Source of the DNA: an uncultured bacterium | GTDB taxonomy: Bacteria > Omnitrophota > Omnitrophia > Omnitrophales > JACQLI01 | Direction: 5' to 3' | NCBI GenBank assembly: GCA_964372875.1 | Contig: CAYJTB010000001.1 | Coordinates: 27,860-91,859, forward strand | DNA length: 64,000 nt | Part shown: piece after piece, positions 11,745 through 40,529 of the stretch | How the letters are laid out: every line of letters begins with the position of its first letter | Numbering within the stretch: the stretch's first letter is position 1 | The notes under the pieces: generated by a model | Told to the model about the DNA's origin: nothing | What the model saw: the letters and a program-made list of their open reading frames with translations, nothing else | Databases searched by the model: none | Position numbers and translations under genes: made by a program

Positions 11745-11877
11745 GTCATCCTGAATGAAGCGACACGTCTTCGAGTGCGGCAAAGCCGCGAAGCCGTGAG
11801 GATCTGCCTTGAGATTCTTTCCGCCAAAGGCGGGCCCGCCTCTGGCGGGCGGCCATAGCCCTCGGCCTCAGAATGAC
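11745..11877. repeat. MITE-like palindromic element, variant termini GTCATCCTGAA...CTCAGAATGAC, intergenic copy
   Basis: Terminal inverted repeats plus internal GC hairpins (GGCGGGCCCGCC...GGCGGGCGGCC); lies between the convergent stops of pdxA and the GT2 gene. Confidence 0.6.
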
Positions 11878-15242: not shown

Positions 15243-15315
15243 GTGTCGAACCATTAGCAACAACTCCAGGGAATTTTTTTACTCTGTAATTCAGACCTTT
15301 AGGAAAGATTAAACT

Positions 15316-21300: not shown

Positions 21301-24300
21301 TTGACCGTGAGCTCTCCGGGTTTTAAGCGCCAGACGCTTCGGCATGCGCTTCGGATGATGCAGGAAGCGCTTCAACTTACTTATTCTTTCCCCGGCACTT
21401 TGAAAGGAAATGACCCCCACCTTTCTTTTTATCACGATAAATTAATCGAAGAGACCCAACTTTTAAAAACATCGGATCAAACCGGAAAGTGGGCCCATGT
21501 CGAATTCGAAATCGCAAGCAGCCATTTTGAAATGCCGGATCATTGGGATCAGCCCGCCGAAAATTCGCTGCGTCAAAGAATTCAGGCGTTGCGCGAGGCA
21601 TTAGAAATTCCCTTTGTCCTTATGTTAAAAGCACCTTCCGGCGCCAAGGATCCTTATCACATCGAGCCGGTGGGAAACCTTCACCAGCGGCTTCCTTATT
21701 TTGTTCTCAAAGATGATTTCTTGAAAAATCCTCACGATCCGCGTTTTCCCTATTTTTCAAAAGGCGCTCAACTCAGTTTCGGACTTGAAGCACCCATGGA
21801 TTCGGCAAGATTGGAACAAGTTAGAAATATTCTGGTTGCAAGTCTTGAAGGCCGGATGTCGGCAGCTACCCTTAAGCGTGCCATTGAAGTGACGATGCAT
21901 CAGTGGCAAAGAGAAGACTCCTTCTTTTCCGAATCCCGCTCCGAGGCACGCCGTGTGCCTCGAACGCTTGCGGTGCACCCGGTGCGGTTGGCACCGGGTA
22001 CTCCGCTATACCCGGACCGGTCGGGTCCGGGTGTTGCGGTGCAGAGTCATTGGAACTCTGCCCGTTCAGAAGTTCGAACGGAGAAGTCAGAACGTCTAAC
22101 TCGTTCCAATGCAGGCGAATTACTCAAACCGCGCAGATACCTCAAGAATAAAATCTACGGAATTGGGCGCATTACCGCTGTGGAAGGAAAATTCGGGGGA
22201 AAAGATCCTCAAGGCTCCGTCGAGGTCGCTTTTTTAAATAAACACGGATTCGAAGAAACGAAAGAATTTTCCACCTGGTCACTTTTTCAATTGCCGGAGC
22301 AAAATCCCGAAGAAGCTTTCTTTTCCGTTACCAGGCAAGAAATCGAAGATTTCAAGAATCAAAAAAGACAAGGTCAAGCAGCTTATAAAGAAGAAATAGA
22401 TAAAAAACGCATAGCCCAACGGGAGGGCAGGCAATGGATGGAAGCACAAAGCCCCACATTTTCTCTCTACGATTCGCCTTTCAGCGCAAGAGCCGGAAGG
22501 CCCCTGGCCGCAGATTATAGAAAATTGATGCAAGGAATCCAAGACCGGGCACAGGGCGAGTATCACTTGGGCAGCGCCTCCATCGTGGAACGAAAAATTT
22601 TGTTTGAAATGCTGGGCACTCGCCTGATCCCTAAGACGAACCAATCGGAAACCACCCTTCGGATCAACTTAGGCCGGAGAAAAAAGGAATTCGCAGAGAA
22701 ATTGAAAACGATTTTAGATGAAACGGGCGGGCTAAGCGCCCGGGCCGTGAGCGAGGCGGAAGAGAAAATCATGTCTCCCAAAGATAAGTCCCGTGCGCTT
22801 TCAAGCGAATGGCTGAAATTCCGGGATCCTGTTACCGGTAAATTTGCGACCGAAAAAGATATCAAACGCTGGATCCAGAATGCCATTCCGATCGTTGAAA
22901 GAATCTTAGAATATGAAGTAAAACTTCTCAAATTAGAAAAACAAATTCAAATTCATCCGCGGCCTCTTGCGCGATCCGAAGTAAGGGCCGCTGAAAGTTC
23001 TCCCACAAAGAAGGTCGCATTTTTTAACCTCAGGACCGCGGACGATTCATCCATTGTTTTGCCGCAAAGGATGTCCTATCTTCCCGTCGAGCAGCGGTTG
23101 CCTGACTATAGCGCCTGGCGGATTCGAGTGGGAAGGGAATCGGGAAATTTGCACGCATTTTTGAGAGATGTCCTTGGCCCACGCTGGCATTGGAATGTCA
23201 AAGGAGAAACTAAGGCTTATTTTCTTTATAAAAGTCTCCCGAAGAAATTCAAACAATTTATTGGTAAACGCAAACCGCCGACAGGTTTTGATATGGAAGC
23301 GCTTGGACTTTTGGTGGTTAATCGAAGCGACATTTTTTACATTCCGATGGAAGAAACTGTGAATGAATCCGTGGTAACGGTGTTAGACAAAAATGACCGG
23401 GACGCGATCAATGAATTTATAAGCCATCATGCAATGATCCAAACGGTGCCGCAGAATATCCGGATCTTTCCTCCCGTTCGATATGAGAGCGTCAAGTTTG
23501 GATTGGGAGAGGATCCCGTGTCGAGTCCCAAGCCCGGCTCCATCGAAGTTGTTTATCACCCCAGGCTCATGGTCAATGATCTTGGCAAGGCAGATAAAGA
23601 AATTATTTTCGAAACCAGTTTCGACTTAACACAATTAAGGCCCCGGAAAAAGATTACGGCTGAACTTGAGGGAAGATTCTATCAAGAGTTAAAGTCCAGG
23701 CTGCGCAATACTTGGCAGATCCGCATAGGCAACCGGACCGTGGAAATGCCTCGGGCAAAAGATTTGCCGGCTAAAGTTCAAGACGTGGAAGAAATTTTGT
23801 TGCCGGGGAATAACCGTAAAACGGCGTCTTTACATTTCAATGATGCGGTTTCGTTCTATCTCGACGGAATTTTGATGCGCTCCAATGTGCCTGTACCCAA
23901 GGATATTCACGCCTGGATTTTTTGGAAAACACGGATTCGTTTTAACGATCAGGAAATCTCGGTTGAAACGACCGAAGGCAACAATGTATTAACTTATCGA
24001 ACAGATGAAACCGGTGAACATCTGCGGGTCAATGGCGAACCGACAGACAATAGTGTTTTGCAAAACATGATTCGTCAGATGGGCTCCGCTTTTTCAATCT
24101 TGGCCTTTCAGATGGCGCGCGATCCCGAACAAACGGATTATCTTCGCGAATCCGGCAAAGAAACGATTGATGATGAATTCGACCAATGGCTCGGCCGTTC
24201 TGAGGTGCGGGAAGAAGGACAGCCTGCACAAAATGGGAATGGCCACGCTATCCAGAAAAAGCAAAGAGGCCGCGGGTTCAGGACTAAAGAAGAAGCCTTG

Positions 24301-27300
24301 CAAGCCCTTGCCGAAAGACAGGCAAAAGGTCTTTCCAGTGATCCAAAATCCCTTCAAAGGCATTTAGCCGAAGGCGGCAACCCTACTTTGCTCACCTTCA
24401 TTTATCGATGGAATCAAAAGCACCCGGAAGAACCCATTGAAATGAAATTGTTGCCTACCCGAACCCACAAGTACGAATCCAAAGGAGAAATTATTGAAGC
24501 GCTGGAAAAAAGGCGGCTGGAAAAAGGAGAATCAGCCAATTATCGAATGCAATTACGCCTTCATATAGAAGAAGGCGGCGATCGTACATTGTATCAAGCG
24601 GTTCTGCGTTGGAATCATGATCATCCAGAGGATTTGATCAATCTTCCTTTGGATCCCCATGTGGCGCATGGTCAATTGGGAAAATACCAGACCAAACAAG
24701 ACGGCTTGAATACTTTGAGTGAAAGGAAAAAACAAGGTCTGGGAAATTCAACCAGCGATCTCAGGCAAACTAAATCGGATGGGGGGGATTGGCCTCTTCT
24801 TGTTTTTATTCGCCATTGGAATAAGAAGCATCCGAAGGATCGCATTGCGCTGGAGAATGCTGACCAAAACTTCAACCGCCTGAGTCCTGTTGCGGTCTGG
24901 CATTCCCAGACGCAGGATTTCAAGACGACCGATCAAAAAAGAACCGAATGGTGGCGGGCCTTGCAGGAAGAGGCGGATCACGAAGCTGGAAAAAGGCTGG
25001 TCGAGTCTTTTATTCCTTCAGTCAATGAGATTGCCCAAAGGTTAAGCGGGGGGAGAGATTCGCATTATGAAGCGGATTTAATCCAAAACGGAAATATGAT
25101 TGTCCTTGAGACGATCTATCCCGAGCGTAAAGAAGACCAGTGGAATCCGAGCCGCGGGGTTTCCATGACCGAATTTGTCGAGACCCGTTTAAAGAAAGAG
25201 ATGAGGCACCGGACATTGCAAGAGATACGTTCCAGCGGGAGATTTTCCATCGACGAGCCCTACCGTTTTTCCAAAGGCAGAGAAAAGGAATGGCAGGTTC
25301 CCAGTTATGACGCCCAACCGCAGGAAGTCCGAATTAACAACTTGGCTGATGAGAGGGACAAGCAATCGGGCCTTCCCGTGATTTTGTTTGAGGAAAAACA
25401 TCAAATCGCCCGCGAGATCGGAAAATGGTTAATCAAAAAAGGTTTTCTTAAACAGGTCAAGCAGGAAGGGATTCAGAACCTTGCCGTTTCAATGATCGGA
25501 AGCCTGGGAGTGCTCGGATCGGCAGTCAGAGATAAAAGCGATCTTAATTTGATGGTTGTTACCGACGCAAATGAGTCGCAGGCTGAAGCCCTCGCAGAAA
25601 AACTTGCGCAGTGGATCGGGGGCCGATATCACGAGCCGCAGGATTCGGAGCCTATCCGCATCTCCGTAGGAAAAGAAGGTGATTATGAGCAAGCCATAGC
25701 AGACGGAAACGGCTTCATTAGCTTACTTCAAAAACACAAGGTGGGCACAGACCCCATCAAAGGAATTGCAAGCGTTGAAGTGATTGGAATTCCCGACGAA
25801 GACAACTCGTTTTCCGAAGACTCTCTTACCCGGCAAAAAACGCGGGCGGCTTTTCACCTGGCCTTCCAAGATCCCCGGTTAGCCGAGCAGGCAATCAATG
25901 GGATCCTTGTCCTTGAAAATGCCAAGGGGGCCGCAGAGCGTCTTGCCCAAAAATTGCCGAGCGATCAGGAAAACCTTTTCGGTTATTATGAAAAATTTCT
26001 TGCCAAACAAGCCGCCAATCTTCGCAAGTTGCAGGAATCTTCCATTGACTCAAAAGCAAGGGCCGAGGTGCACCCGAATCCGACCGATTCGGGTACTCCT
26101 CAGTCCTCGCCCGATCAGGCGAGGGCCGAGGTGCGTTCTTCTTTGCCGGAGCAACGGGCGGAAAAGAAGTTAGAAACAAGAAAGTTGGAAATTGGAGCAG
26201 GAATCAGCGGGCTTAGCGGCCGCGTTGAAACATCTAATGGGCGTGTTTTTTCCGGAAGTGATCGATTGCCAATAAAGTCAACGAGATCGCCGCAAAAATC
26301 AGAATGGCAAGGACAGCCGTCATTTAGTCTTCCTCCTTTGAGGAGCTTGCCGCAAAAATCAAGCCCAAATAAAAGCATATCACGAGTCCTCCTAGAACGA
26401 CAAGCCGCCATTTCAGGGAGAGTTTTAGGAAAAGCTCTCCTCCCAGAACTCCTGCTAATAGGACCAAAATCACATGCTGAAACAACTTTGCCAGCCAGTC
26501 CCTCCGGGCCGTTGTCAGGAATATACTTTTCACAAAATAAAATATATAGCAATATCAATTCAGAGTTAAGCGATTTTTCCCGCTCCGATGGTTCGACAAG
26601 CTCACCATCGGTCCTGAGCAAGGCCGAAGGCCGCGTCGAACGCGCCGAGGTGCACCCGAATCCGACCGATTCGGGTACTCCTCCGCACTCACGCCCAACC
26701 GGCGTGAGTACTGAGGTGTCCCTGGCGGCGCCGCCAGGGGCTCCTCCGTCCTCGCCTGAACGGGCGAGGGCCGAGGTGCGGGCAAGCGTTGAAGAAATAA
26801 TCAGGAAGCAGATGCTTTCTGGAGATCTGAAGGCCTTTGAAAAGAATTTCGAATCTTACGACCGTGAAAAGGCCTTTGAACTTTTAAATAGCATTTCGAA
26901 AATTGCCAAGGAAATTTCAGAAAGGATCCGCAAAGGAGAAGAAGAACTGATGGTAGCTGCAAACAATGGCCAAAAAATGCAAGAAATCATTGACGCGGCT
27001 AAAATCTTGGAAAATTTCCCAAATGATAAACAAATACATGGTGTCCACCTATCAGCTATTATAAATTTACAGGAAATCTTCAATCTTACACCAAAAGCAT
27101 TGCCAAGATATCGCAATCTCTTAGAAGCTATTGTTAAACACGCGTCAAAAAAAGAACAACCTCACCAGGCAGCAGCTGAAATTATCGAGAGCTTTGAAGG
27201 AGAACAGCACGCTGATTCCCAACAAGATCAATTTCAAAGGAACGAAGCACTGGAATTTTTAACCCTAGATCTGGATGAAAAAGTTTTTAAAGAAACAGTA

Positions 27301-28719
27301 ATAAAAAATCATTTTCTGACCGCGCTTCATCATTTCATTTGGGAACACAGCGACTTTGAAGATGCGAAGAATTTAGCCAGAGAACTCGGTAACTTGAGCC
27401 TAATCAGTTCTTTGTTGGGTGAGCCCCTCAGTAAAAGACAGGCCGCTTTTTATAAGCGCGCACTTTTGAGCTCTGACCGCACGCAGCAGAAGATCGCGCT
27501 TGGCTTCTTCGAGACTTTCCCTGATCTTGAAAAAATGGACTGGAAAGAGGAAGTCGTTGGTAAACTTAAAGAAATCGTAATGGATGAATCCGAAGATTCT
27601 GAATTTAGAAAATATGCCTTTGAAGCGTTGACAAACAATATTCTTCTTATAGAGCCAGCCTTTTTGGCGCCTTATTTTAAAGAGCCGCGCAGCCAACGGT
27701 TTCGAATCATTTCTTCGGATAAAAAAGGCGCTCGGATTTTATTTTCGGTTCTTCAGAAGAAATTTGGGTCGCCTTTAAAGGACCCGCCCCTTTTTAAAAA
27801 AAGTTCCGAGTCCATCATTTTATCAGGAGAATTTACGACAGGTCTGAGAAATGCTGCCATGTTGATCCGATTTGTAAGGCAGGCCTACGGCCGGGAGATA
27901 TCCTTTGATGAGTCCCGCGGCTTGCTTAAAGAGATGAAAAAGAAACAAGACAGATCCCGGCGTTCCGAAATACGGAGTGAAAGCTTGGATTCGACGTGGG
28001 AGTTGAGGGAGGATGCGAACAAAGGAAAGCTTGCGGAACTTGGAAAACAATTTGCGCCGATGATTGAGAGTCTTTGGAAACGCTCCGAGGTCAGGCACAG
28101 GCTTGCGACGGACGGATTTTTGAATCTTTCAAAGCTGATTGAAATTCCCAAAGCCGAAGCGGCTGAACCTGCGATTGTAGCTGCGCTTTTGATCCGTGCA
28201 GAACAATCCCAAACCGGAACGCCGGCTTTGGACAAACATTTGCAAGTGTGGCAGTCGCGCATGGGAATCAGTTCGGTTGCTAAAGAAAATGAAGTCGTAA
28301 TCCTCTTAGAAGGTGCGGCGTTTAAACTCGGACTCTTGGCTGCGATCGACGGAATTAGCCCGGCAGCTCCGAAGATCGGCGTTGTGGCGCCCAAGGCTTA
28401 CCATTCTTTAGTGGAAGAAGTCAGAAGCGGTCTTAGAACCGGGCAAGAACTGATCGAAGGGGAGAAGCTTCCCGAAATTTTAAATCAAATTGCTCAGATG
28501 AAACAGAAGCCAAGCCGCTTAACGATTTGGGCTTCGAAGGAAGACTCGTTCTTAACAGCAGCGTTCATCAAACGTTTTCTTAAAGATCCAAACCTGAATG
28601 TAGAAGTAAAGACCGTGACGCAGCGCGATCTTGACCGCGCCAACGCGTCTCACCCCGGCTTTGCGGAACGTATCAAGAACTTCCTCGCCGCCGTCAAATC
28701 CCTCAGCATTTCCGCTTAA
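15316..28719 (+). CDS. giant modular ORF, 4,467 codons, function unknown
   Basis: Single uninterrupted frame; AGGAAAG RBS; N-terminal TM helix; protein-like composition in most modules; junction peptide conserved with synonymous codon variation. Caveat: three segments look non-coding on this strand. Confidence 0.7.
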   Translation: MTLRAKNFYLRTVAAFTAIIFCWNSLAWPLPEVAVPQAGKTFDLIPKELGTVDEYELPDASHSAPFVIHIQDLHAAPEAQEKILDILKFLHSKKKLLVAVEGAAGTLHPEYLDFFPQYPRVTNALVQDLVSESMLTGPALFAWERYESKPSLHPSLRGRKSEAISNPRLLRRAFGPPHNDNSVQFIGVETPRLYRENLKAYRDFFQDEEKNQQDLKSFQTSLESAQTKIFNPDLRKFVQEVQRRKDGKFQSGKASPDLAAYIRFLADSSRDHLGVDLRDKFEQIRFPNLTRILFLMEFESKITAHQRRVLHSEIESKKLFDEITLLETRLRQILVKKPEETKLLEILDDFKLLEKLFHLELTREEYYQVVNRVLEINPSNLHQRLATIAEIASTSSEMLSRNDADYETALRFYRLAIRRDKALLENALREAAKTENSSQEKPLIVLVTGGFHTSGVSELLKEKKIPYAVVTPALAKTKANQDQYHKLMSGKMFAKEASSASPKNNNLVWAQILTARDRYPSLNSDEDQQKIFSHATEKSGEYFRKFYPQISEPKLQELLSRPAGFFSQISRSELQSRSQITNSAIDGRIGGKRVLPSRFPRSEVRAVEQRLEVSGQKTEGWSSKIGKIIRNGSDFGLSRVFQRSQAKNYRIPSRLEKSRGERIEISLKVFIDSRSWSPVTMIVALAERAHSSTASSSGSRQAFTFVLGLTIKAFIWINEIISSSISGVIHFLSLGFSSERRKSSSKAGDKAAMNLSSSRDSRIERQTPGKASPLTSTFTSRTTRRIPFLPGLLDQIQKLFSAERVFLSAFINFAGQRTEAFSPGLMFKTTDQGNAVTGFQLIDHALNLLNVYFHGNLRHRILSSSSNQYNLSALADQNQNISSVKPSKQSSTEPSRRAASGPESRQSPILSVDRPGGARGEVRAKEQRSEVREQRIEVISQRSEGKITSSGGDFGSVRSGTSRPRQEISKPKQETRLSRFIYPFSESLGQAIQEIRIMMATIIERTALAFNEVFQMFSLTTRAANTRLTALMIPSANKFRLLDGKRVFISMLQAPQPNTGLILSQILFLEYEISRRSEVREYISDWTVSTLETKQPVLAAAFSTDGKILAAGARNNVHLTNGDLRKWSVEFRAHRNEIAKLISFQRGNRNFFATASRIGSISLWNSNGGLIRRLEQLNPEDFQPVLGLSVSKNGDWLAATDMDVMKIYDLTGMSSPKTIPITDQSRNHFVQFSPDGTSIASTYYGEIRIEDIKTGKLRANLHHEASLKKSMDTSALAFSKGDDVAAASTDGKIRIWRWKGERQPQVLDFLSPAREASHLIFSPNGKRLAASTADQIEIWKLNGKVWRHEETIYPHLDAVTEILFSPDAKRFMAAGIWHGSGRVRIWSKETPARAEVRTDGIPTTWFRIFNRLDNLNREVWKQKDLDIIDLTNQLEKKLISLFGSQLLYGIWTWNTSVREVRFGLRSGPLSFELTANPHQEIPEREIKRGYTVTMNAMLTSAAESQHAKKWGDSEPEERGETLLEIPIAEIDRSQPVIYFGSFYFDTDKEKKETIIKQEILFLPGEERNYQIYIWHNNALEKTTLEKEGGRTYAVWRTPEAEPSLSFQYVALHDAQGKDLGEISRLILKAGNSETYRNNLQFLYGPIWRDETSSFSHGSRTSVKPSVFEDLISAAPGKRIAALLGLAIEYQYVPEGQVFSRMLLTELEKLEGLPYGRIAALREIAEMSPEEAHERFKDPYDQPSAIPAVMTLVASLAPRLLERMKNWDQEFYEELKGVLQKPDLKTLFEEGEVKFYEADHLWAASDNRSFFPGVVAFSRSKDRQIIVPIYFGNEPKDEDGKVWFKILDATSLGIENSNAATYQVYDHMLGEFYKTLHSGEKLYREGWSIGIPVVPGKLDRAGFIQKGRHVQFLEMRRTQSLTTATRIGLPENLVKTQGILTDLLREMSKLEIYFFISKTGATDRRMVPVDNVYEFFSSYAGKKGEHWNEIVSEPLQLTVSSPGFKRQTLRHALRMMQEALQLTYSFPGTLKGNDPHLSFYHDKLIEETQLLKTSDQTGKWAHVEFEIASSHFEMPDHWDQPAENSLRQRIQALREALEIPFVLMLKAPSGAKDPYHIEPVGNLHQRLPYFVLKDDFLKNPHDPRFPYFSKGAQLSFGLEAPMDSARLEQVRNILVASLEGRMSAATLKRAIEVTMHQWQREDSFFSESRSEARRVPRTLAVHPVRLAPGTPLYPDRSGPGVAVQSHWNSARSEVRTEKSERLTRSNAGELLKPRRYLKNKIYGIGRITAVEGKFGGKDPQGSVEVAFLNKHGFEETKEFSTWSLFQLPEQNPEEAFFSVTRQEIEDFKNQKRQGQAAYKEEIDKKRIAQREGRQWMEAQSPTFSLYDSPFSARAGRPLAADYRKLMQGIQDRAQGEYHLGSASIVERKILFEMLGTRLIPKTNQSETTLRINLGRRKKEFAEKLKTILDETGGLSARAVSEAEEKIMSPKDKSRALSSEWLKFRDPVTGKFATEKDIKRWIQNAIPIVERILEYEVKLLKLEKQIQIHPRPLARSEVRAAESSPTKKVAFFNLRTADDSSIVLPQRMSYLPVEQRLPDYSAWRIRVGRESGNLHAFLRDVLGPRWHWNVKGETKAYFLYKSLPKKFKQFIGKRKPPTGFDMEALGLLVVNRSDIFYIPMEETVNESVVTVLDKNDRDAINEFISHHAMIQTVPQNIRIFPPVRYESVKFGLGEDPVSSPKPGSIEVVYHPRLMVNDLGKADKEIIFETSFDLTQLRPRKKITAELEGRFYQELKSRLRNTWQIRIGNRTVEMPRAKDLPAKVQDVEEILLPGNNRKTASLHFNDAVSFYLDGILMRSNVPVPKDIHAWIFWKTRIRFNDQEISVETTEGNNVLTYRTDETGEHLRVNGEPTDNSVLQNMIRQMGSAFSILAFQMARDPEQTDYLRESGKETIDDEFDQWLGRSEVREEGQPAQNGNGHAIQKKQRGRGFRTKEEALQALAERQAKGLSSDPKSLQRHLAEGGNPTLLTFIYRWNQKHPEEPIEMKLLPTRTHKYESKGEIIEALEKRRLEKGESANYRMQLRLHIEEGGDRTLYQAVLRWNHDHPEDLINLPLDPHVAHGQLGKYQTKQDGLNTLSERKKQGLGNSTSDLRQTKSDGGDWPLLVFIRHWNKKHPKDRIALENADQNFNRLSPVAVWHSQTQDFKTTDQKRTEWWRALQEEADHEAGKRLVESFIPSVNEIAQRLSGGRDSHYEADLIQNGNMIVLETIYPERKEDQWNPSRGVSMTEFVETRLKKEMRHRTLQEIRSSGRFSIDEPYRFSKGREKEWQVPSYDAQPQEVRINNLADERDKQSGLPVILFEEKHQIAREIGKWLIKKGFLKQVKQEGIQNLAVSMIGSLGVLGSAVRDKSDLNLMVVTDANESQAEALAEKLAQWIGGRYHEPQDSEPIRISVGKEGDYEQAIADGNGFISLLQKHKVGTDPIKGIASVEVIGIPDEDNSFSEDSLTRQKTRAAFHLAFQDPRLAEQAINGILVLENAKGAAERLAQKLPSDQENLFGYYEKFLAKQAANLRKLQESSIDSKARAEVHPNPTDSGTPQSSPDQARAEVRSSLPEQRAEKKLETRKLEIGAGISGLSGRVETSNGRVFSGSDRLPIKSTRSPQKSEWQGQPSFSLPPLRSLPQKSSPNKSISRVLLERQAAISGRVLGKALLPELLLIGPKSHAETTLPASPSGPLSGIYFSQNKIYSNINSELSDFSRSDGSTSSPSVLSKAEGRVERAEVHPNPTDSGTPPHSRPTGVSTEVSLAAPPGAPPSSPERARAEVRASVEEIIRKQMLSGDLKAFEKNFESYDREKAFELLNSISKIAKEISERIRKGEEELMVAANNGQKMQEIIDAAKILENFPNDKQIHGVHLSAIINLQEIFNLTPKALPRYRNLLEAIVKHASKKEQPHQAAAEIIESFEGEQHADSQQDQFQRNEALEFLTLDLDEKVFKETVIKNHFLTALHHFIWEHSDFEDAKNLARELGNLSLISSLLGEPLSKRQAAFYKRALLSSDRTQQKIALGFFETFPDLEKMDWKEEVVGKLKEIVMDESEDSEFRKYAFEALTNNILLIEPAFLAPYFKEPRSQRFRIISSDKKGARILFSVLQKKFGSPLKDPPLFKKSSESIILSGEFTTGLRNAAMLIRFVRQAYGREISFDESRGLLKEMKKKQDRSRRSEIRSESLDSTWELREDANKGKLAELGKQFAPMIESLWKRSEVRHRLATDGFLNLSKLIEIPKAEAAEPAIVAALLIRAEQSQTGTPALDKHLQVWQSRMGISSVAKENEVVILLEGAAFKLGLLAAIDGISPAAPKIGVVAPKAYHSLVEEVRSGLRTGQELIEGEKLPEILNQIAQMKQKPSRLTIWASKEDSFLTAAFIKRFLKDPNLNVEVKTVTQRDLDRANASHPGFAERIKNFLAAVKSLSISA
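15765..15855. mobile_element. MITE-like element inserted in-frame in the giant ORF
   Basis: GTCATTGCACCC GTCATTGCGAGG...AAGCAATC..GATTGCTTCG...CCTCACAATGAC; translated SLRGRKSEAISNPRLLRRAFGPPHND. Confidence 0.6.
16475..16524. repeat. possible degenerate/short copy of the same MITE family
   Basis: CCATTGCTGAGATTGCTTCG...TCTCGCAATGAC, translated ...MLSRND; left terminus is weak. Confidence 0.3.
17059..17082. repeat. 24-bp perfect palindrome
   Basis: AATTCGGCCATC|GATGGCCGAATT, 34 nt upstream of the first RSEVR junction. Confidence 0.9.
17259..17672 (-). CDS. PIN-domain ribonuclease toxin (PIN_3/VapC-like)
   Basis: VVLDVNVLVSGL..., CRDPDDDAVLECALSAKATIIVTGDHDLL: acidic PIN residues in the canonical order; 20-nt overlap with the upstream small gene. 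Confidence 0.9.
   Translation of the reverse strand: MRRVVLDVNVLVSGLAFPGVCRSILESLEEDKFIAALSPALLEDFLRSLEKPKLKKWITPEMLEEMISLIHMKALIVKPKTKVKACRDPDDDAVLECALSAKATIIVTGDHDLLSMKTFKEISILSPRDFSKRLGIR
17653..17892 (-). CDS. putative antitoxin of the PIN toxin
   Basis: 79-aa basic protein directly upstream of and overlapping the PIN gene; strong RBS; family not recognised. Confidence 0.6.
   Translation of the reverse strand: MPKIAVEVDIQQIERMINQLKSRDRITLIRRLEHKTWGERFRSLTRKVDKSRKKHPLSRKELLNLVKQARQERYASGRS
18070..18556 (-). mobile_element. antisense cassette 2: junction, 3'-flank repeat, small membrane protein
   Basis: Same build as cassette 1; bounded by junctions at 18070 and 18541; minus-strand TTGACT -35-like box upstream of ATG 18461. 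Confidence 0.4.
18258..18461 (-). CDS. small two-TM membrane protein (paralog of 26324..26533)
   Basis: 67 aa with two hydrophobic helices. Shares MK(T/S)(L/I)F...RR..(F/L)A...LVL.A.V...SLK pattern with the other cassette protein. Confidence 0.5.
   Translation of the reverse strand: MKTLFPSKRRNLFADGIMRAVSLVLAALVVSENIWKTSLKAKAVLSIIVAIMILISWMACPRDSEKG
18556..19491 (+). other. WD40-type beta-propeller module of the giant ORF
   Basis: Repeated units such as FSTDGKILAAG, ATASRIGSISLWN, FSPDGTSIAS, ASTDGKIRIWRW, FSPNGKRLAAS..IEIWK, FSPDAKRFMAAG..RVRIWS. Confidence 0.8.
21937..22080. repeat. in-ORF array of GC-rich hairpins at a module junction (copy a)
   Basis: CGAGGCAC/GTGCCTCG; CCCGGTGC/GCACCGGG; ACCCGGACC/GGTCCGGGT; CAGAGT/ACTCTG; CCGTTC/GAACGG; flanked by RSEAR and RSEVR codons. 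Confidence 0.65.
24274..24857 (+). repeat. three tandem ~65-aa protein repeats inside the giant ORF
   Basis: GFRTKEEALQALAERQAKGL...GGNPTLLTFIYRWNQKHPEEPI / KYESKGEIIEALEKRRLEKG...GGDRTLYQAVLRWNHDHPEDLI / KYQTKQDGLNTLSERKKQGL...GGDWPLLVFIRHWNKKHPKDRI. Confidence 0.6.
25060..25230 (+). other. sigma-70 region-2-like stretch in the giant ORF
   Basis: EADLIQNGNMIVLETIYPERKEDQWNPSRGVSMTEFVETRLKKEM resembles DLIQEGNIGLMKAV..FDP.RG..FSTYA.WWIR. Confidence 0.35.
25483..25575 (+). other. nucleotidyltransferase (Pol-beta/MNT-like) motif in the giant ORF
   Basis: SMIGSLGVLGSAVRDKSDLNLMVVTD matches the G-S-x(n)-G...D-x-D minimal NTase pattern. Confidence 0.45.
26059..26136. repeat. in-ORF hairpin element (copy b)
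   Basis: AGGGCCGAGGTGCAC CCGAATC cgacc GATTCGG GTACTCCT...CCTCGCC cgatca GGCGAGG GCCGAGGTGCGT; 39 bp (26062-26100) are repeated perfectly at 26644-26682. Confidence 0.7.
26324..26533 (-). CDS. small two-TM membrane protein (paralog of 18258..18461)
   Basis: 69 aa, GTG start, two hydrophobic helices, acidic C-terminus (SSSKEED); A/T-rich TATATT box upstream on the minus strand. Confidence 0.5.
   Translation of the reverse strand: MKSIFLTTARRDWLAKLFQHVILVLLAGVLGGELFLKLSLKWRLVVLGGLVICFYLGLIFAASSSKEED
26641..26781. repeat. in-ORF hairpin element (copy c, expanded to four hairpins)
   Basis: CCCGAATC/GATTCGGG; ACTCACGCC/GGCGTGAGT; CCCTGGCGG/CCGCCAGGG; CCTCGCC/GGCGAGG. Confidence 0.7.
26782..27960 (+). 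other. alpha-helical (HEAT/ARM-like) module of the giant ORF
   Basis: Helix-rich composition with a recurrent ~40-aa helical periodicity; judged by eye only. Confidence 0.3.
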
Positions 28720-29397: not shown

Positions 29398-30312
29398 TTG
29401 AGTTCCACGCAAATCGCCCTTCTTAAAAAATACGGTCTTGAAGTCCGTGGATTTCGCGGCCAGCATCTTTTGGTCGATCCCAACATTCAACGAAAGATCG
29501 TGGAGTTAGTCGCTCCCAAACCAGGTGAGTGGATCGTTGAGATCGGGCCGGGCCTGGGTGCGCTCACGACTGAGATTTTGGCGGACGGCGCGTCGGTCCT
29601 TGCGATTGAAAAAGACAAACGCTTCTGCGAGATCCTGGAAGGGGAGTTCGGCATCGATTACAAAGGAAAACTCCTGATCGAAAATGCGGATGTTCTCAAG
29701 ACGGATTTAAAAAAATTACTCAAATCGTCGTTACGAGCCCCAAAGAGGCGAAGCAACCTAAGCACGAAGACTGCTTCGGCGCCGCCTCGCAATGACCGGA
29801 TCAAAGTCATCTCGAACCTTCCTTACTATATAACTTCACCTGTGCTTTTCTGGCTGATCTCCAATCGTGCATCTGTGGAAAAAGCGGTTTTGATGATGCA
29901 GGCTGAAGTCGCGGACCGTTTGCTCGCCCAGCCGGGAGATAAAGATTATAGCCGGCTTACCTTGGGAGTCCGGTATTACGCCGAAGTCCACCGTGCTTTT
30001 GAAGTTTCCCGCAATTGTTTTACTCCGAGGCCCGATGTCGATTCAACGGTCGTGACGATCGATTTTCACCCGCCGTCCGCATTCCCAAAAGGAATCGACG
30101 AGGCATTTCTTTTCCATCTCATTCAAGTAGCCTTCGGTGCCCGGCGAAAAACCCTACTCAATCGTCTTACGCAAGATTCAAAAGTAGGTCGCCCTCGTTC
30201 CCAGCTCTTAGAAATTTTTCACAAGCTCGGCATCCCCGAAATGGCCCGCGCTGAAGAGCTCCTCCTCAAAGACTTCATCTCATTGACCGAATTTCTTCAA
30301 CCTAAACATTAA
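29398..30312 (+). CDS. rsmA: 16S rRNA (adenine1518/1519-N6)-dimethyltransferase, carrying an in-frame repeat insertion
   Basis: GQHLLVDPNI, VEIGPGLGALT SAM motif, SNLPYYITSP; TTG start. Confidence 0.9.
   Translation: MSSTQIALLKKYGLEVRGFRGQHLLVDPNIQRKIVELVAPKPGEWIVEIGPGLGALTTEILADGASVLAIEKDKRFCEILEGEFGIDYKGKLLIENADVLKTDLKKLLKSSLRAPKRRSNLSTKTASAPPRNDRIKVISNLPYYITSPVLFWLISNRASVEKAVLMMQAEVADRLLAQPGDKDYSRLTLGVRYYAEVHRAFEVSRNCFTPRPDVDSTVVTIDFHPPSAFPKGIDEAFLFHLIQVAFGARRKTLLNRLTQDSKVGRPRSQLLEIFHKLGIPEMARAEELLLKDFISLTEFLQPKH
29727..29796. mobile_element. MITE-like element in-frame in rsmA
   Basis: GTCGTTACGAG...GAAGCAACC..CTGCTTCGG...CCTCGCAATGAC, translated SSLRAPKRRSNLSTKTASAPPRND, placed just before the NLPY motif. 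Confidence 0.6.
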
Positions 30313-34297: not shown

Positions 34298-35362
34298 ATG
34301 TTAACCCTCGGCATCGAGACCTCCTGCGATGAAACCTCCTGCGCGGTTTTAAAAAATGGCGATGAGATTCTTTCCAATATTGTTTCCTCGAGCCTTGCCC
34401 AACACACACCCTTTGGGGGAGTCGTTCCCGAGATTGCGTCGCGTCACTGTCTGGAACAAATTGATTTAGTTTTTGAAACCGCGCTCGAAAAGGCCGGCGT
34501 TTCAAAAAAAGATTTGGATTTAGTCGCGGTAACCCAAGGCCCCGGGCTGGTGGGTTCGCTTCTGGTCGGACTTTCTTTTGCCAAGGCGTTGGCCTATCAG
34601 CTTAAAATCCCTTTGATTGGGGTCAATCATTTAGAAGGACATCTTGCAGCGAATTTTATTGGAAAGCCGCTTCCGAAATCTTTCATTGGTTTGATTGTCT
34701 CGGGCGGCCACACAGAACTTACTTATCACCGGAACGGCGCCATAAAAATTCTTGGATCTACGGTGGACGACGCTGTGGGTGAGGCGTATGACAAGTCAGC
34801 GAAACTTCTCGGCCTGGGTTATCCCGGCGGTCCGGTCATGGATAAGTTGGCGCAAAAGGGAAATCCCAAGGCCTTCCGGTTCACGCGGCCCAAGCAAAAA
34901 GGACGATTTGATTTTAGTTTCAGCGGAATTAAAACAGCGGTATCTGTCATTGTGAGGGCGCAAAGCGCCCGAAGCAATCTGACGCCAGTGGCGTCAGGGC
35001 TTCGTCCCGCCCCCGTTGGGGGCAGTCCTCGCAATGACCATCAGTTTGTCAACGATCTCTGCGCCAGTTTTCAGGAGACGGTAGTGCGCTGGCTTGTGGA
35101 AAAAACCATCGCCGCCTGCAGGAATAAAAAAGTAAGCGATGTGGTTGTGGGCGGGGGAGTAAGCGCCAATACAAGACTCCGTGAACTTCTTCCCCAAGAA
35201 GCCAAGCTTTATCATATCAATGTTTGGTTTCCTCCGTTTTCGCTGACCATTGATAATGCGGCAATGATCGCAAGGCGAGGCTTTGAACTTTACCAGAAAG
35301 GAAAACGAACGGATTTCAAAATTTCAGCCCGTCCCAGTTTTCCCATAGGAGAGGCAAAATGA
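34298..35362 (+). CDS. tsaD: tRNA N6-adenosine threonylcarbamoyltransferase, carrying an in-frame repeat insertion
   Basis: MLTLGIETSCDETS, GVNHLEGHL, FSFSGIKTA, GGVSAN: TsaD/Kae1 motifs; ATG 34298 preferred to the track start 34259. Confidence 0.92.
   Translation: MLTLGIETSCDETSCAVLKNGDEILSNIVSSSLAQHTPFGGVVPEIASRHCLEQIDLVFETALEKAGVSKKDLDLVAVTQGPGLVGSLLVGLSFAKALAYQLKIPLIGVNHLEGHLAANFIGKPLPKSFIGLIVSGGHTELTYHRNGAIKILGSTVDDAVGEAYDKSAKLLGLGYPGGPVMDKLAQKGNPKAFRFTRPKQKGRFDFSFSGIKTAVSVIVRAQSARSNLTPVASGLRPAPVGGSPRNDHQFVNDLCASFQETVVRWLVEKTIAACRNKKVSDVVVGGGVSANTRLRELLPQEAKLYHINVWFPPFSLTIDNAAMIARRGFELYQKGKRTDFKISARPSFPIGEAK
34946..35038. mobile_element. MITE-like element in-frame in tsaD (93 bp, 31 codons)
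   Basis: GTCATTGTGAGG...GAAGCAATC...CCTCGCAATGAC with hairpins GGGCGC/GCGCCC, TGACGCC/GGCGTCA, GCCCCC/GGGGGC; translated VIVRAQSARSNLTPVASGLRPAPVGGSPRND between FSFSGIKTA and the ..LCASFQE helix. Confidence 0.7.
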
Positions 35363-35808: not shown

Positions 35809-36692
35809 CACTCACACAAGAAACTATCGGAAAAATTTTAAAAGAGGTCGAATCGCGCAAAATTTCCAGCCAGAAGGCGTTTGGGAAATTACAAAATCTC
35901 GCTTACGAAACTTTTTCATTCGCCAGGATGGATCATCACCGTACTCTGCGCAAAGGTTTTCCGGAGGCGATCTACACACCCGGTAAAACGATTCCTCAAC
36001 TGGAAAAAATTTTCCGTTCGATCCAAAAATCAGGACAAAAGCTGATCGCGACGCGCTTGGAGGAGAGTGTTTATAAAACACTCAGGAAAAAATTCCCCGG
36101 TCTTCGCTATTCAAAGGAAGCAAGGATTGGGTATTTCTCATCCGTCATTGCGAGAAGCACCAACGGTGCGACGAAGCAATCCCGACCAGAGATTGCTTCG
36201 TCCCTTCCTACGGAAGGGACGGTTAAAGGAATCCTCTTTAGCCCTGACGCCAGTGGCAACAGGACTTCGGCTTTGTCTGGAACGCCGCCTCGCAATGACA
36301 GAGAGAAATCCATTGCGATTCTCACCGCTGGCACGAGCGATCTTCCGGTTGCGGAAGAGGCGGCCATTACGCTTGAATTAATAGGAAAGAAAGTTGTCCG
36401 GATTTATGACTGCGGTGTCGCGGGCCTGCACCGGCTTTTGGATCAAGTCTCAACATTACAAGAAGTCAAAGCCGTGATCTGCGTTGCGGGAATGGAAGGC
36501 GCACTTCCGAGTGTGGTCGCTGGCTTGATCAGTAAACCTATCATTGCAGTTCCGACCAGTGTGGGTTACGGCGCAAGCTTCAAAGGTCTTGCGGCGCTTC
36601 TTACCATGCTCAATTCCTGCGCTCAAGGTGTAGCCTGCGTCAATATTGATAACGGATTCGGCGCCGCCTGCTTTGCCGCGTCTATTGCCTAA
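35805..36692 (+). CDS. larB: LarB-like protein (PurE/AIR-carboxylase fold; pyridinium-3,5-biscarboxylic acid mononucleotide synthase family), carrying an in-frame repeat insertion
   Basis: N-terminal domain ..ARMDHHRTLRKGFPEAIY.PGKT; C-terminal IAILTAGTSDLPVAEEAA...CVAGMEGALPSVVAGL...IAVPTSVGYG; ATGA overlap with the MgtC stop sets the start at 35805. Confidence 0.75.
   Translation: MTLTQETIGKILKEVESRKISSQKAFGKLQNLAYETFSFARMDHHRTLRKGFPEAIYTPGKTIPQLEKIFRSIQKSGQKLIATRLEESVYKTLRKKFPGLRYSKEARIGYFSSVIARSTNGATKQSRPEIASSLPTEGTVKGILFSPDASGNRTSALSGTPPRNDREKSIAILTAGTSDLPVAEEAAITLELIGKKVVRIYDCGVAGLHRLLDQVSTLQEVKAVICVAGMEGALPSVVAGLISKPIIAVPTSVGYGASFKGLAALLTMLNSCAQGVACVNIDNGFGAACFAASIA
36144..36299. mobile_element. 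MITE-like element(s) in-frame in larB (156 bp, 52 codons; possibly two fused units)
   Basis: GTCATTGCGAGA...CGAAGCAATC ccgaccaga GATTGCTTCG, TCCCTTCC/GGAAGGGA ... CCTCGCAATGAC; lies in the linker between the two LarB domains. Confidence 0.7.
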
Positions 36693-37649: not shown

Positions 37650-38368
37650 TCGCGCTTTTAAGCGCAGGGCTTGGCGCACTGCTCGCCATTAGCTTTGGCG
37701 TGTCCCACCGGAATTTGTGTGCCCTTATCAGTTTCGCAGCCGGAACCCTTTTTGCTACGACTCTTTTTCATATTATTCCCGAGGCTGCTTCATCTCTTCC
37801 GATGCTTGCCATCCTTATTGCATTAGGATCGGGGTATGGGTTTTTTTATTTTTTGAGCCGCTTTGTCTTTCACGTGTGCCCCGCCTGCGCGGCGTCACAT
37901 TTTGATGAACAGACAGCCACTAAATTTCGCAGCATTGCACTTCTTTTGGCAACTGCATTGGGGATTCATTGTGTCTTCGATGGGGTAGCCATTGCGTTGG
38001 GAGAGGAGTTAGCGAACAAGGCTAATTGGTCTATCTTTCTTACGATCACCATCCATAAATTTCCGGAGGGCCTTGCCCTCACAGCCCTTTTAATGAAGTC
38101 GGGATTTAACCGCGCAAGGTCGCTTTTTGTTACCTTTGTCCTTGAAACTTTGACCTTGCTGGGGTGGGTTTTAGGCACGTTTTTAATGCAAGATCTATCC
38201 TTAGGAAGCTGGTTTTACTTGATCCTTTTGCACATCGGAGGGGGATTTATCTACCTGGCCCTTCACGCCCTCATTAATGAAAGCAAAGAGCATTCGCCTA
38301 GCTACATCCTCTTCTTTTTCCTGCTTGGGGTTGGCCTTATCGGCCTGACCAATTTCATACCCTCCTAA
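37622..38368 (+). CDS. ZIP-family divalent-metal transporter
   Basis: 8-TM profile, HKFPEGLA motif, HxxPE (FHIIPEA). Confidence 0.8.
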   Translation: MLVTFIQNLIALLSAGLGALLAISFGVSHRNLCALISFAAGTLFATTLFHIIPEAASSLPMLAILIALGSGYGFFYFLSRFVFHVCPACAASHFDEQTATKFRSIALLLATALGIHCVFDGVAIALGEELANKANWSIFLTITIHKFPEGLALTALLMKSGFNRARSLFVTFVLETLTLLGWVLGTFLMQDLSLGSWFYLILLHIGGGFIYLALHALINESKEHSPSYILFFFLLGVGLIGLTNFIPS

Positions 38369-38555
38369 ACCGCCCAAAAGTAAGCTCAAAAAAACCTTTC
38401 GTTTTAGACTCTTTTTAAAGCTGCTATCTAATGCTAAGGATCGTTCAGTCCTGGCATAATAGGCTAGCCAACATTCCTTTGTATTCCGTAATTACTAAAT
38501 GTATAGTTAAAGTGATTATTAAGAATTTAATTAGTTAAATGAAAACGAGGAAGAC

Positions 38556-40496
38556 ATGAAGATAAAAATCGAAGGTTCAACTAATAAGCTTGTAAAGGTG
38601 ATCAGCATTTTCCTGTCTTTATCTTTGATTTTCTGGGTTTCGGTCCCGGTTTCTTTTGCTGGTTCACCGTTTGAGGCTCCTGAGACTGACCCAAATTCCA
38701 CCACTCCTACGATTGACATTGAAAATCCTGAAAATCCTCCCGCGGAAGAAGAATTTCCCGACCCGGCAGCTTTGGGATCCGACCAAGAGACCACCGAAGA
38801 ATTTGTAGCGACAGAGGAAGGAACCCCTTTGTCTGACCCCATTTTTCTTGATGATCCTCAGGACCAAGCCCTTCTCGATGCATTGATTGACGCCGGTGCA
38901 GACCAAGCGACGATCGACGCTTTTCTGACAAGCGTTGAAGTAGAAAACACAGTAGCGCTGCCGGATGAAGAAACGAATCCCAATGAGGACCCTTTTTTGA
39001 TGGGTCAAACGGAGGAATCCATAGAGGGTACAGCGTTTGAAGATCCTGCCCTTACCGGTCCGAGTAATGAAGCGGCAGAAAATGTAGATCTTGAAGCGGA
39101 AACAAGTGACCCAGAAATGATTGAGATGGCGACCTTGGAGGGAGAAGAGGAAGTTCTCCAGAATATGTCGGAAGAAAATTCAACGGAGGAAACCGTCATC
39201 CCGGAAGAAACTACAGACCCGGAGGCTGAAGTCATAGAAGACCCCACGAATACTGAAGAGGCGTTGGATCTTGAGGCGCTCCAGTTGGAACTTGAACAGC
39301 AATTGCAGATAGAAAACCCTGATTGGACTCCGGAGCAGATTACACAACAGGCCGAAGAAATCATTAGTTCAATCTTTGGTGAAGAAACGGTGAGTGAAGA
39401 AGCCCAAGCGGTGGAAGAAGACTTCGATATGGCGGCATTTGAAGAACAGCTTCATGATCCAAATTTTGATTTAACCTCTGAGGAAATTGACGGAATCCTC
39501 ACTTACTTTAATAGCAATGGAGAAGAGGGGGAGCTTTCAGAAAAACAATGGCTTGTTTTAGAGGAAATTTTTAGTGGCAAGACCAAAAGTACTGAAACGG
39601 AAACTACAGAAACTACCGAAGAAGACCCTCTACCGAAAGTTATGGAGACACCCACCGAAACCATTGAAGAAGATTCCATGAAAACGGTGGAGACAACCAC
39701 CGAAACCACGAGTGAAGAAACCACAAATAATGAAGACGCATCTTTAAATGACTTTCTTGAGCAACTCAATAGCCGGTCAAATAACTCGGATTTCACTTCT
39801 GACCAAGCAGCGGCAAATGCCGCAGCGGCCAACGCAGGTGGTGGCGGAAGCACCGGCGGAGGATCCAGTTCAGACAGTTCTTCTTATGGCGGAGGCGCGC
39901 GTCTCTCAAGCATGGGAACCATGCCCAATGTTTCCCAATGGGGCTCTGCCGTCATCCCCGTTTCACTTGTGAACAGAATTTCAGGGCTTAGAGAAATGCT
40001 CAGTCGCATTAAATCCGGCCAGATGGATTTGCTCAGCCAATTTAATAGAGAAATCTACGCCTTGGTCTCACTTTTCAAAAGCCAAGGCCTGATGGTTCCC
40101 GAAGAAATTCTGAACCTTATCAGAGAAGCTCAAAGCGTTCAGGTAAGTGAAGGCATTCGAGTCGAAAATAAAAGTAAAAATGTTGAATTCAAAAGGACTT
40201 CCATCGTTGTTGATCAAGTCGAACAATCTGAAATTTCAGAACAAGCACCAACCGAGCGAACAATGGTCCAGGCCGAGCAGCAACAAGTCTCAAATGAGAC
40301 TGGGACGGAAGATGATTTTGAAGTGAGCGATCAAGTGAGCGATCGTATTCAAGAAGCTGAACATATTCAAGTCGCGGTAAACCTGGCTGAAAAAAATAAT
40401 ATGATCATTTCCCGTGTCGCAAACACTCACTTGGTGGTTACTCCTGTGGTCACACCGGTTTTCTCCCAGCAGCCACCGGCAGGGCAGACGAACTAA
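38556..40496 (+). CDS. secreted, extremely acidic low-complexity protein, unknown function
   Basis: Signal peptide ...FWVSVPVSFAGSP; about 400 aa rich in E/T/D/P; Gly/Ser tract; more ordinary C-terminal ~200 aa; AGGAAG RBS. Confidence 0.6.
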   Translation: MKIKIEGSTNKLVKVISIFLSLSLIFWVSVPVSFAGSPFEAPETDPNSTTPTIDIENPENPPAEEEFPDPAALGSDQETTEEFVATEEGTPLSDPIFLDDPQDQALLDALIDAGADQATIDAFLTSVEVENTVALPDEETNPNEDPFLMGQTEESIEGTAFEDPALTGPSNEAAENVDLEAETSDPEMIEMATLEGEEEVLQNMSEENSTEETVIPEETTDPEAEVIEDPTNTEEALDLEALQLELEQQLQIENPDWTPEQITQQAEEIISSIFGEETVSEEAQAVEEDFDMAAFEEQLHDPNFDLTSEEIDGILTYFNSNGEEGELSEKQWLVLEEIFSGKTKSTETETTETTEEDPLPKVMETPTETIEEDSMKTVETTTETTSEETTNNEDASLNDFLEQLNSRSNNSDFTSDQAAANAAAANAGGGGSTGGGSSSDSSSYGGGARLSSMGTMPNVSQWGSAVIPVSLVNRISGLREMLSRIKSGQMDLLSQFNREIYALVSLFKSQGLMVPEEILNLIREAQSVQVSEGIRVENKSKNVEFKRTSIVVDQVEQSEISEQAPTERTMVQAEQQQVSNETGTEDDFEVSDQVSDRIQEAEHIQVAVNLAEKNNMIISRVANTHLVVTPVVTPVFSQQPPAGQTN

Positions 40497-40500
40497 GTCT

Positions 40501-40529
40501 TTGACACCTTTTAGGGCAGTCGTTACAAT
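40501..40529 (+). promoter_or_regulatory. near-consensus sigma-70 promoter abutting hisG (probably a leaderless mRNA)
   Basis: TTGACA, 17 nt spacer, TACAAT; the -10 box ends 8 nt before ATG 40538 and there is no SD. Confidence 0.5.

Follow-up and report, generated by a model that had tools for sequence, protein, structure and literature searches.

Repetitive extragenic palindromic (REP) sequences with a CGTC tag and the Rickettsia palindromic elements (RPEs) are the described repeats against which we compare a palindromic insertion in the tsaD gene of an uncultured bacterium of the phylum Omnitrophota (NCBI GenBank assembly GCA_964372875.1, contig CAYJTB010000001.1, positions 27,860 to 91,859 of the forward strand; these 64,000 nucleotides are called the window below, and positions refer to it). 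CGTC REPs, according to Di Nocera et al. 2013 (PMC3733652), combine a CGTC tag (variants TGTC and CCTC) with a stem of 8-9 bp that starts with A/T, the first two positions being complementary, a loop of 4-5 nt and a CCA tail; they form dimers, have no dedicated transposase, and occur in Alphaproteobacteria and several other phyla. In the same account, RPE-6 and RPE-4 of R. conorii are equated with CGTC-1 and CGTC-4, respectively, and a table of intragenic REPs holds dimers that encode 20-37 residues (e.g., SFPRKRES...DSRFRGND); for R. conorii, dimers inside genes are put at 20-30 aa. In-frame palindromes within genes are the hallmark of RPEs (Ogata et al. 2000, 2002, as summarised in PMC10969869), and protein-coding palindromes were earlier described as peculiar to Rickettsia and a few other genomes. 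The tsaD insertion is, very probably, a non-autonomous REP dimer of the CGTC type that sits in an insertion-tolerant surface loop of TsaD and is translated with it while being of no use to the protein. Intragenic CGTC-type REPs and RPE-like elements are known already; what is added here is a recurrent hot-spot loop and a phylum-level shift from extragenic to intragenic copies.

The insert occupies positions 34946-35038 on the plus strand, i.e., 93 nt or exactly 31 codons, and is stop-free in the frame of the tsaD open reading frame (ORF; 34298-35362), where it encodes TsaD residues 217-247 (VIVRAQSARSNLTPVASGLRPAPVGGSPRND). An earlier, sequence-only reading of the window had given this span and translation correctly, along with three hairpins, all of which are present, the middle one with a stem of 9 bp rather than the 7 bp then stated. 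Its view of an in-frame, hairpin-rich segment in a functional tsaD holds as well, whereas the 12-nt terminal inverted repeats, a further stem (CGAAGC/GCTTCG), four additional copies in the window and, overall, a dispersed REP-type family had gone unrecognised. The left terminal repeat GTCATTGTGAGG (34946-34957), preceded by a T that yields the TGTC variant of the CGTC tag, is complementary at 11 of 12 positions to the right terminal repeat CCTCGCAATGAC (35027-35038), which reads P-R-N-D; the single mismatch is T:G on the sense strand and G-U-compatible. Between the termini, and likewise on the plus strand, lie a first module hairpin, GGGCGC-AAA-GCGCCC (34956-34970, arms 34956-61/34965-70), in the position held by a GCGNAGC mini-hairpin in other members; the inner stem CGAAGC/GCTTCG (family motif CGAAGCAATC; 34970-35004, arms 34970-75/34999-35004), which surrounds the 9-bp central hairpin CTGACGCCA-G-TGGCGTCAG (arms 34979-87/34989-97); and a last module hairpin, GCCCCC-GTT-GGGGGC (35009-35023, arms 35009-14/35018-23). 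The five stems combine into a four-way junction, and the minimum free energy of the insert is -58.7 kcal/mol, compared to -33.2 ± 3.5 for dinucleotide shuffles (z = -7.3); none of the 200 shuffles was as good, and the fold is not a chance outcome. Across the window, we counted 10 occurrences of the terminal 12-mer at no more than 1 mismatch, where 0.47 are expected. Rfam, applied to the whole window at gathering thresholds and to the region at E = 10, matched only a tRNA elsewhere, and a scan for intrinsic terminators inside the insert returned none. The element does comprise 31 codons, as had been claimed, but these are not all extra: the net gain is just 21-24 residues, namely, 21 over the closest insert-free orthologue (354 vs. 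333 aa) and about 24 relative to T. maritima TsaD, where 29 residues stand in place of 5. Given that this gain is smaller than 31 codons, about ten native loop and helix residues are missing.

We scanned one genome per species with the pattern GTCATTGYGAG-N50-80-CTCRCAATGAC and found the family termini in many phyla, in at least 120 stretches of genome (among the matches listed, Alpha-, Gamma- and Deltaproteobacteria, Bacteroidota, Chloroflexota, Patescibacteria, Planctomycetota and Cyanobacteria, with abundant copies in Bradyrhizobium and Sphingomonadales), as well as in at least 120 viral contigs (IMG/VR, L205-L324). The 254 distinct elements have a common plan, (C/T)GTC-ATTGC-GAG-[module]-GAA-GCAAT-CCA, followed by a spacer and the reverse complement; we refer to the architecture of the tsaD insert as family A. 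Judged by this layout, two REP-like units, (C/T)GTC-ATTGC-GAG-[mini-hairpin]-GAA-GCAAT, make up the element as an inverted dimer. The module is usually GCGNAGC (CGAAGC in 54, CGCAGC in 46, CGTAGC in 15 and CGGAGC in 9 arms), which we take to be a very stable GNA-loop DNA mini-hairpin, and the remaining modules are longer GC-rich hairpins, as in the window copies. The two arms of one element agree more than arms of different elements, being identical over 5 nt in 33 of 148 cases vs. 12 expected (maximum 25 in 1000 shuffles). RNAalifold identified compensatory changes at the -1/+1 tag pair (25 sequences have C:G there and 9 have T:A), together with double changes in 12-18 sequences at each of the three pairs after AATC. 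The flanks of the elements are Y/R: of 130 copies, 124 have a pyrimidine ahead of GTCAT (87 C and 37 T), and at the mirror position 90 have G and 36 have A. In other phyla, about 100 of the 148 arms continue from GAAGCAAT into CCA; the window copies have CTG, CCC or CTC instead. Target-site duplications, tested for lengths of 1-8 bp, were not found above chance.

The tag, the unpaired CCA tail and the inverted dimers with a variable, often structured spacer are those of the CGTC superfamily (dimers were seen in all scans, and the spacer of the tsaD copy is structured), and the element belongs to, or very near, this superfamily, although its membership is incomplete. Set against the published peptides and descriptions, the family would represent either a CGTC-3 variant or a further, undescribed member of the superfamily. 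CGTC-3 REPs (Rhodopseudomonas and Bradyrhizobium; peptide VIAGLDPAIH...DARVKPGHD) resemble family A in the CGTC tag, ATTGC...GCAAT and CCA, as read from DNA obtained by back-translating the peptides, and in the dimer organisation; they differ in having a stem of 9 bp with a 5-nt loop where the present family has 5 bp, GAG, a GCGNAGC mini-hairpin or GC hairpin, and GAA. RPE-6 and RPE-4 share with the present family in-frame palindromes in housekeeping genes with no dedicated transposase known, tags at the outer ends, peptides that start with S-F/L- or V-I- and end with -R-x-N-D (SFPRKRES...DSRFRGND in Rickettsia vs. SLRG.../VIAR...PRND here), and hosts with small genomes. Here, too, the palindrome lies in frame in unrelated genes at fold-compatible positions. 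The two groups differ in the stem (ATTCCCGC in RPEs vs. ATTGC plus the mini-hairpin), in their hosts (Rickettsiales vs. Omnitrophota), and in that here one and the same loop has taken in several families on repeated occasions, with nesting of elements. Because the RPE peptides SFPRKRES and VIPWLDHGI differ from VIAR.../SLRG..., the family falls in neither of these named RPE families, and the kinship is at the superfamily level only.

REP doublets forming hairpins (REPINs; Bertels and Rainey; Nunvar et al.) are, like the present family, inverted REP pairs that form a long hairpin, with concerted arms and no target-site duplication. REPINs, however, carry a GTAG tag, are extragenic and are accompanied by a single-copy REP-associated tyrosine transposase (RAYT), whereas the present tag is CGTC or TGTC and neither a RAYT nor any other recurrent flanking gene was found in the loci examined (a distant RAYT elsewhere in the genome is possible), so that we do not assign the family to a REPIN-RAYT system. 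Classical MITEs (transposable elements of the miniature inverted-repeat type; Correia, ERIC, QMITE and others) are also short, non-autonomous and bounded by terminal inverted repeats, and occasionally form in-frame fusions; they derive from insertion sequences and make target-site duplications. The present elements have the terminal inverted repeats, yet no parent insertion sequence was found, nor a 1-8 bp duplication, nor an autonomous partner in 1.5 Mb, and a MITE of this origin was rejected. A full-text literature search with the element sequence strings returned unrelated primers only, and among the papers searched none linked Omnitrophota to REPs.

The host gene tsaD (34298-35362 from ATG to stop codon, plus strand, 354 aa) is intact and under strong purifying selection. 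Its product matches PF00814 (9 × 10−89, Pfam) and solved TsaD chains (about 4 × 10−83, PDB), the PDB alignment breaking into two parts precisely at the insert (residues 2-220 and 250-348 of the query vs. T. maritima 2-221 and 227-325). Foldseek gave TMt values (target-normalised template modelling scores) of 0.91-0.93 to bacterial TsaD structures at ranks 1-9 (E. coli, Salmonella and Aquifex at the top), 0.90 for 8iey_A, and 0.83-0.86 for T. maritima chains. All columns that are invariant across 119 homologues are kept in the window TsaD, including H111, H115 and D319. Outside the loop, dN/dS is 0.067-0.077 in three comparisons involving the window, the insert-bearing relative L001 and the insert-free relative L003; relaxed selection on this copy, which the sequence-only reading had named as evidence against itself, is not seen at values of about 0.07, and no second tsaD is present within the window, over which the single-copy premise can be checked. 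In an AlphaFold2 model of the insert-bearing TsaD (pLDDT, the predicted local distance difference test score, 91.5), insert residues 217-225 prolong helix 209-225, the stretch 231-250 has pLDDT values of 53-66, and the next helix begins at residue 247; the insert is modelled as a helix extension followed by a low-confidence loop.

Four more family A copies lie in the window, all of them stop-free and preserving the frame of their hosts (identified with Pfam), so that five in-frame copies are spread over four genes: tsaD, a giant ORF (twice), rsmA and larB. On the plus strand, the larB copy is a composite of 156 nt or 52 codons (36144-36299), in frame in the inter-domain linker (VIARSTNGATKQS...PPRND); the rsmA/ksgA copy (29727-29796) is degenerate but in frame (SLRAPKRRSNL...PPRND) and is missing from the L003 orthologue; and the giant ORF (15313-28719) contains one copy at 15777-15855 (SLRGRKSEAIS...PPHND) and a half or decayed copy at 16480-16524 (EIASTSSEMLSRND). 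The tsaD copy carries the tag TGTC, and those in larB, the giant ORF and rsmA carry CGTC; in the tsaD and rsmA copies the right-hand flank is C instead of the mirrored tag base. The larB and tsaD copies have in common the module CTGACGCCAGTGGC..CAGG.CTTCG, which indicates a common source within the genome.

Comparison of the 120 closest TsaD homologues shows that 47 of 53 internal insertions of at least six residues are located in this one loop, and that they come from at least four repeat families: family A, its sister family D (RHSEA...RFAQDD), a GTAG-type family (VGAGLRARP...GQPRGVAPT, comparable to GTAG REP peptides in Di Nocera et al. 2013), and the family PLTPTLSP...GERVRVRG. When the loop is left out of the TsaD tree, carriers of families A, B, C and D and insert-free sequences ("none") are intermixed, with differences even from sister to sister, and the inserts have been gained and lost repeatedly. 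A family A copy occupies the identical position in three independent assemblies (L001, L002 and L127). Of the other relatives, L126 retains a minimal remnant that runs from terminus to terminus, L131 has one half unit, L128 has a family D dimer, and the site is empty in L003 and L125. The starting points of family A inserts fall on at least two different loop codons, so that they do not all descend from one event. The inserts of the window and L001, which may be orthologous or independent, have insertion points one codon apart and different variable modules, and synonymous sites are saturated. Judged by named LarB homologues, the lineage belongs to Candidatus Omnitrophota. The LarB inter-domain linker behaves like the TsaD loop, with repeated occupation among homologues, and across an 11-gene syntenic block there are three in-frame inserts in the window, three or four in L001 and none in L003. 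The palindromic family PLTPTLSP...GERVRVRG (other strand FLPPLWGKVRMGV) is found in TsaD and LarB loops (homologues P0007, P0012, P0027, P0031, P0065, P0083, P0084, P0097 and P0210) and was matched to no named repeat family. At the 5' end of the annotated gatB of L001 (8397-8483; also L127, 2397-2483), a 35-nt family D unit, GTCATCCTGAGGCCCCTATGGGGCCTCAGGATGAC, is nested in a family A dimer, which shows that these elements insert into one another; the N-terminal extension of gatB that carries this nested copy may not be translated.

The genic context differs sharply between phyla. Of 14 copies in Omnitrophota loci, 12 are intragenic, lying in a frame without stops that continues for at least 50 codons on each side, whereas in other phyla, among the matches listed, the same criterion holds for 17% of copies, compared to 66% of random positions in the same loci (Fisher's exact p = 6 × 10−7 for Omnitrophota vs. 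the rest). Copies in other phyla and in viral contigs are mostly extragenic, and the element lengths in other phyla show no bias towards multiples of three (46, 46 and 38 in the three length classes). The most economical reading is that such insertions have been fixed unusually often in this lineage, which presumably has ultra-small cells and compact genomes, as in Rickettsia.

The earlier reading had left two branches, in which the insertion is either tolerated in the protein or removed before translation. The constrained host gene and the frame-preserving copies support the former. A family member inserted at random would keep the frame and be free of stops with a probability of 0.16, compared to 5 of 5 coding copies in the window (p about 1 × 10−4), a signature of selection on the translated sequence. 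In all five window copies and nearly all homologue inserts, the frame in use turns the right terminus into hydrophilic ...RND, and the other open frame, ...LAMT, is rare; this points to selection on the peptide. The rival account, in which the insert is removed by RNA splicing, translational bypassing or protein splicing so that TsaD is made without it, could draw on the very stable predicted RNA fold and on the fact that tsaD is normally essential, but we consider it very improbable. The element has no Rfam match even at E = 10; its 93 nt fall far short of a group I or II intron and its 31 aa far short of an intein, and it has no C/S...HN intein termini; nor is there a stop codon or a take-off and landing arrangement suited to bypassing. 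For an excised element, the stop-free and frame-preserving condition of the coding copies would be a needless constraint. Moreover, excision at the termini would shift the frame in the giant-ORF and rsmA copies, which have 79 and 70 nt between termini, and without the 31 codons the TsaD segment from KTA to DLCASFQ would be left with 7 residues, shorter than in any of the 119 homologues (minimum 13), which makes removal before translation unlikely. In TsaD itself, about ten native residues are replaced by the element, the first nine residues of which are modelled as the missing end of the helix.

Under the reading that we prefer, a selfish REP dimer would land anywhere and be seen only where a protein tolerates the insertion. 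A non-autonomous palindromic repeat would have landed in the one insertion-tolerant surface loop of TsaD and be transcribed and translated together with tsaD; its first nine residues would take the place of lost native ones and lengthen the helix before them, and the others would form a flexible loop away from the conserved core. Frame-breaking or stop-carrying copies would have been purged by selection, which would explain why every coding copy is in frame. The element would most probably be neutral for TsaD, its hairpins serving its own propagation through recognition of single-stranded DNA hairpins by some enzyme. The combination of hairpin modules suited to single strands with no target duplication suggests mobilisation of an HUH or Y1 type, and phages or prophages are a possible vehicle for the spread across phyla. 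Viral copies are often located between phage structural genes (portal, terminase and tail-like ORFs).

Several observations weigh against this account. The continuous stem is 5 bp (ATTGC...GCAAT, starting with AT), followed by GAG, the module and GAA, compared to the published 8-9 bp, and the right flank of the tsaD copy is C where the tag calls for G or A. Unbiased clustering of ORFs near the elements yielded no recurrent neighbouring gene apart from the phage structural genes in viral contigs, and 1.5 Mb of loci contained no credible long autonomous form (termini 0.4-4 kb apart enclosing an ORF). The window tsaD copy itself is supported by a single assembly only. Finally, the stems of the tsaD copy are nearly perfect, which reflects either a recent insertion or selection for structure, the latter implying a function at the DNA or RNA level. 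That the element has been co-opted in this manner, with its RNA or DNA structure selected (for example, through translational pausing between subdomains, mRNA stability or RNase processing) or with a lineage-specific function of the peptide, is improbable in our judgement. The near-perfect stems in a coding context, the lone terminal-repeat mismatch being of the G-U-compatible T:G type on the sense strand, the element residues that form part of a helix in the model, and the recurrent occupation of the same inter-subdomain positions in TsaD and LarB would all fit such a role. Recent insertion, however, explains the perfect stems equally well, insert-free sister lineages show identical constraint on the rest of the protein, unrelated repeat families replace one another at the site, decayed or truncated remnants are common (L126, L131 and the rsmA copy), and the model confidence of the insert is low. 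That this tsaD is a pseudogene in decay, or a chimera that a repeat produced during assembly, is extremely improbable: repeats can mis-join contigs, and this exact protein is known from one contig only, but tsaD continues on both sides of the insert, collinearly and in frame, all invariant residues are kept at a dN/dS of 0.07, and an equivalent family A insert was independently assembled in the same loop in L001, L002 and L127. A bolder proposition, which we regard as unlikely, is that in this Omnitrophota clade REP-type palindromes are a systematic generator of lineage-specific loops, whereby a few permissive landing pads in essential enzymes (the TsaD helix-loop, the LarB linker and the RsmA loop) are re-colonised, possibly by preferential insertion into resident palindromes, as the nested copy of family D in family A suggests, and the retained structure or peptide is selected. 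If true, proteins would here evolve by a new route that is targeted by structure, beyond the survivorship of random insertions.

With the REP dimer taken as a tolerated and translated insertion, the protein-coding palindromes previously ascribed to Rickettsia and few other genomes are, for this family, mostly intragenic in another lineage. Omnitrophota is a candidate phylum known for tiny cells and giant genes, and the contrast with other phyla is a natural experiment that can be used to study how the architecture of a genome, or weak selection, admits selfish DNA into essential proteins. The insertions also map sites of tolerance in TsaD, LarB and RsmA, and they explain many odd low-complexity segments in metagenomic proteins (VIARS..PRND, SLRGA..RRSNL and VGAGLRARP). 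A hidden Markov model hit that is split in two, such as that of TsaD in the PDB search, can accordingly stem from an inserted repeat instead of a gene fusion or a frameshift.

The only extragenic copy in the window belongs to family D, in which ATCCT/AGGAT replaces ATTGC/GCAAT at all four corresponding positions. This copy, 133 nt in length (11745-11877; GTCATCCTGA...TCAGAATGAC), fills the convergent spacer between pdxA, which ends at 11721, and a minus-strand gene that ends at 11885, and folds with a dG of -63 kcal/mol. A link of such repeats to small GIY-YIG nuclease genes was considered and dropped when phmmer with the L001 protein gave no match among the 120 element-bearing loci listed; in L001, two identical 104-aa GIY-YIG nuclease genes lie in tandem (16350-16999), with no link to the repeats found. 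Elsewhere in the window, about 2 kb between a zip-family transporter gene and hisG (38365-40505) are missing in the syntenic relatives L001 and L003. The giant ORF (15313-28719, plus strand) encodes 4468 aa with a WD40 beta-propeller at about aa 1064-1376, and its syntenic counterpart in L001 encodes 8492 aa. A peptide motif, R-[S/A/G]-E-[V/I]-[R/H], recurs 14 times in this ORF; because its codons vary, it is conserved as a peptide and not as a DNA repeat, and it may mark linker or processing sites. The same ORF harbours a 48-nt imperfect palindrome (26706-26753; 26-nt arms, 85% complementary) beside duplicated ARAEVHPNPTDSGTP segments.

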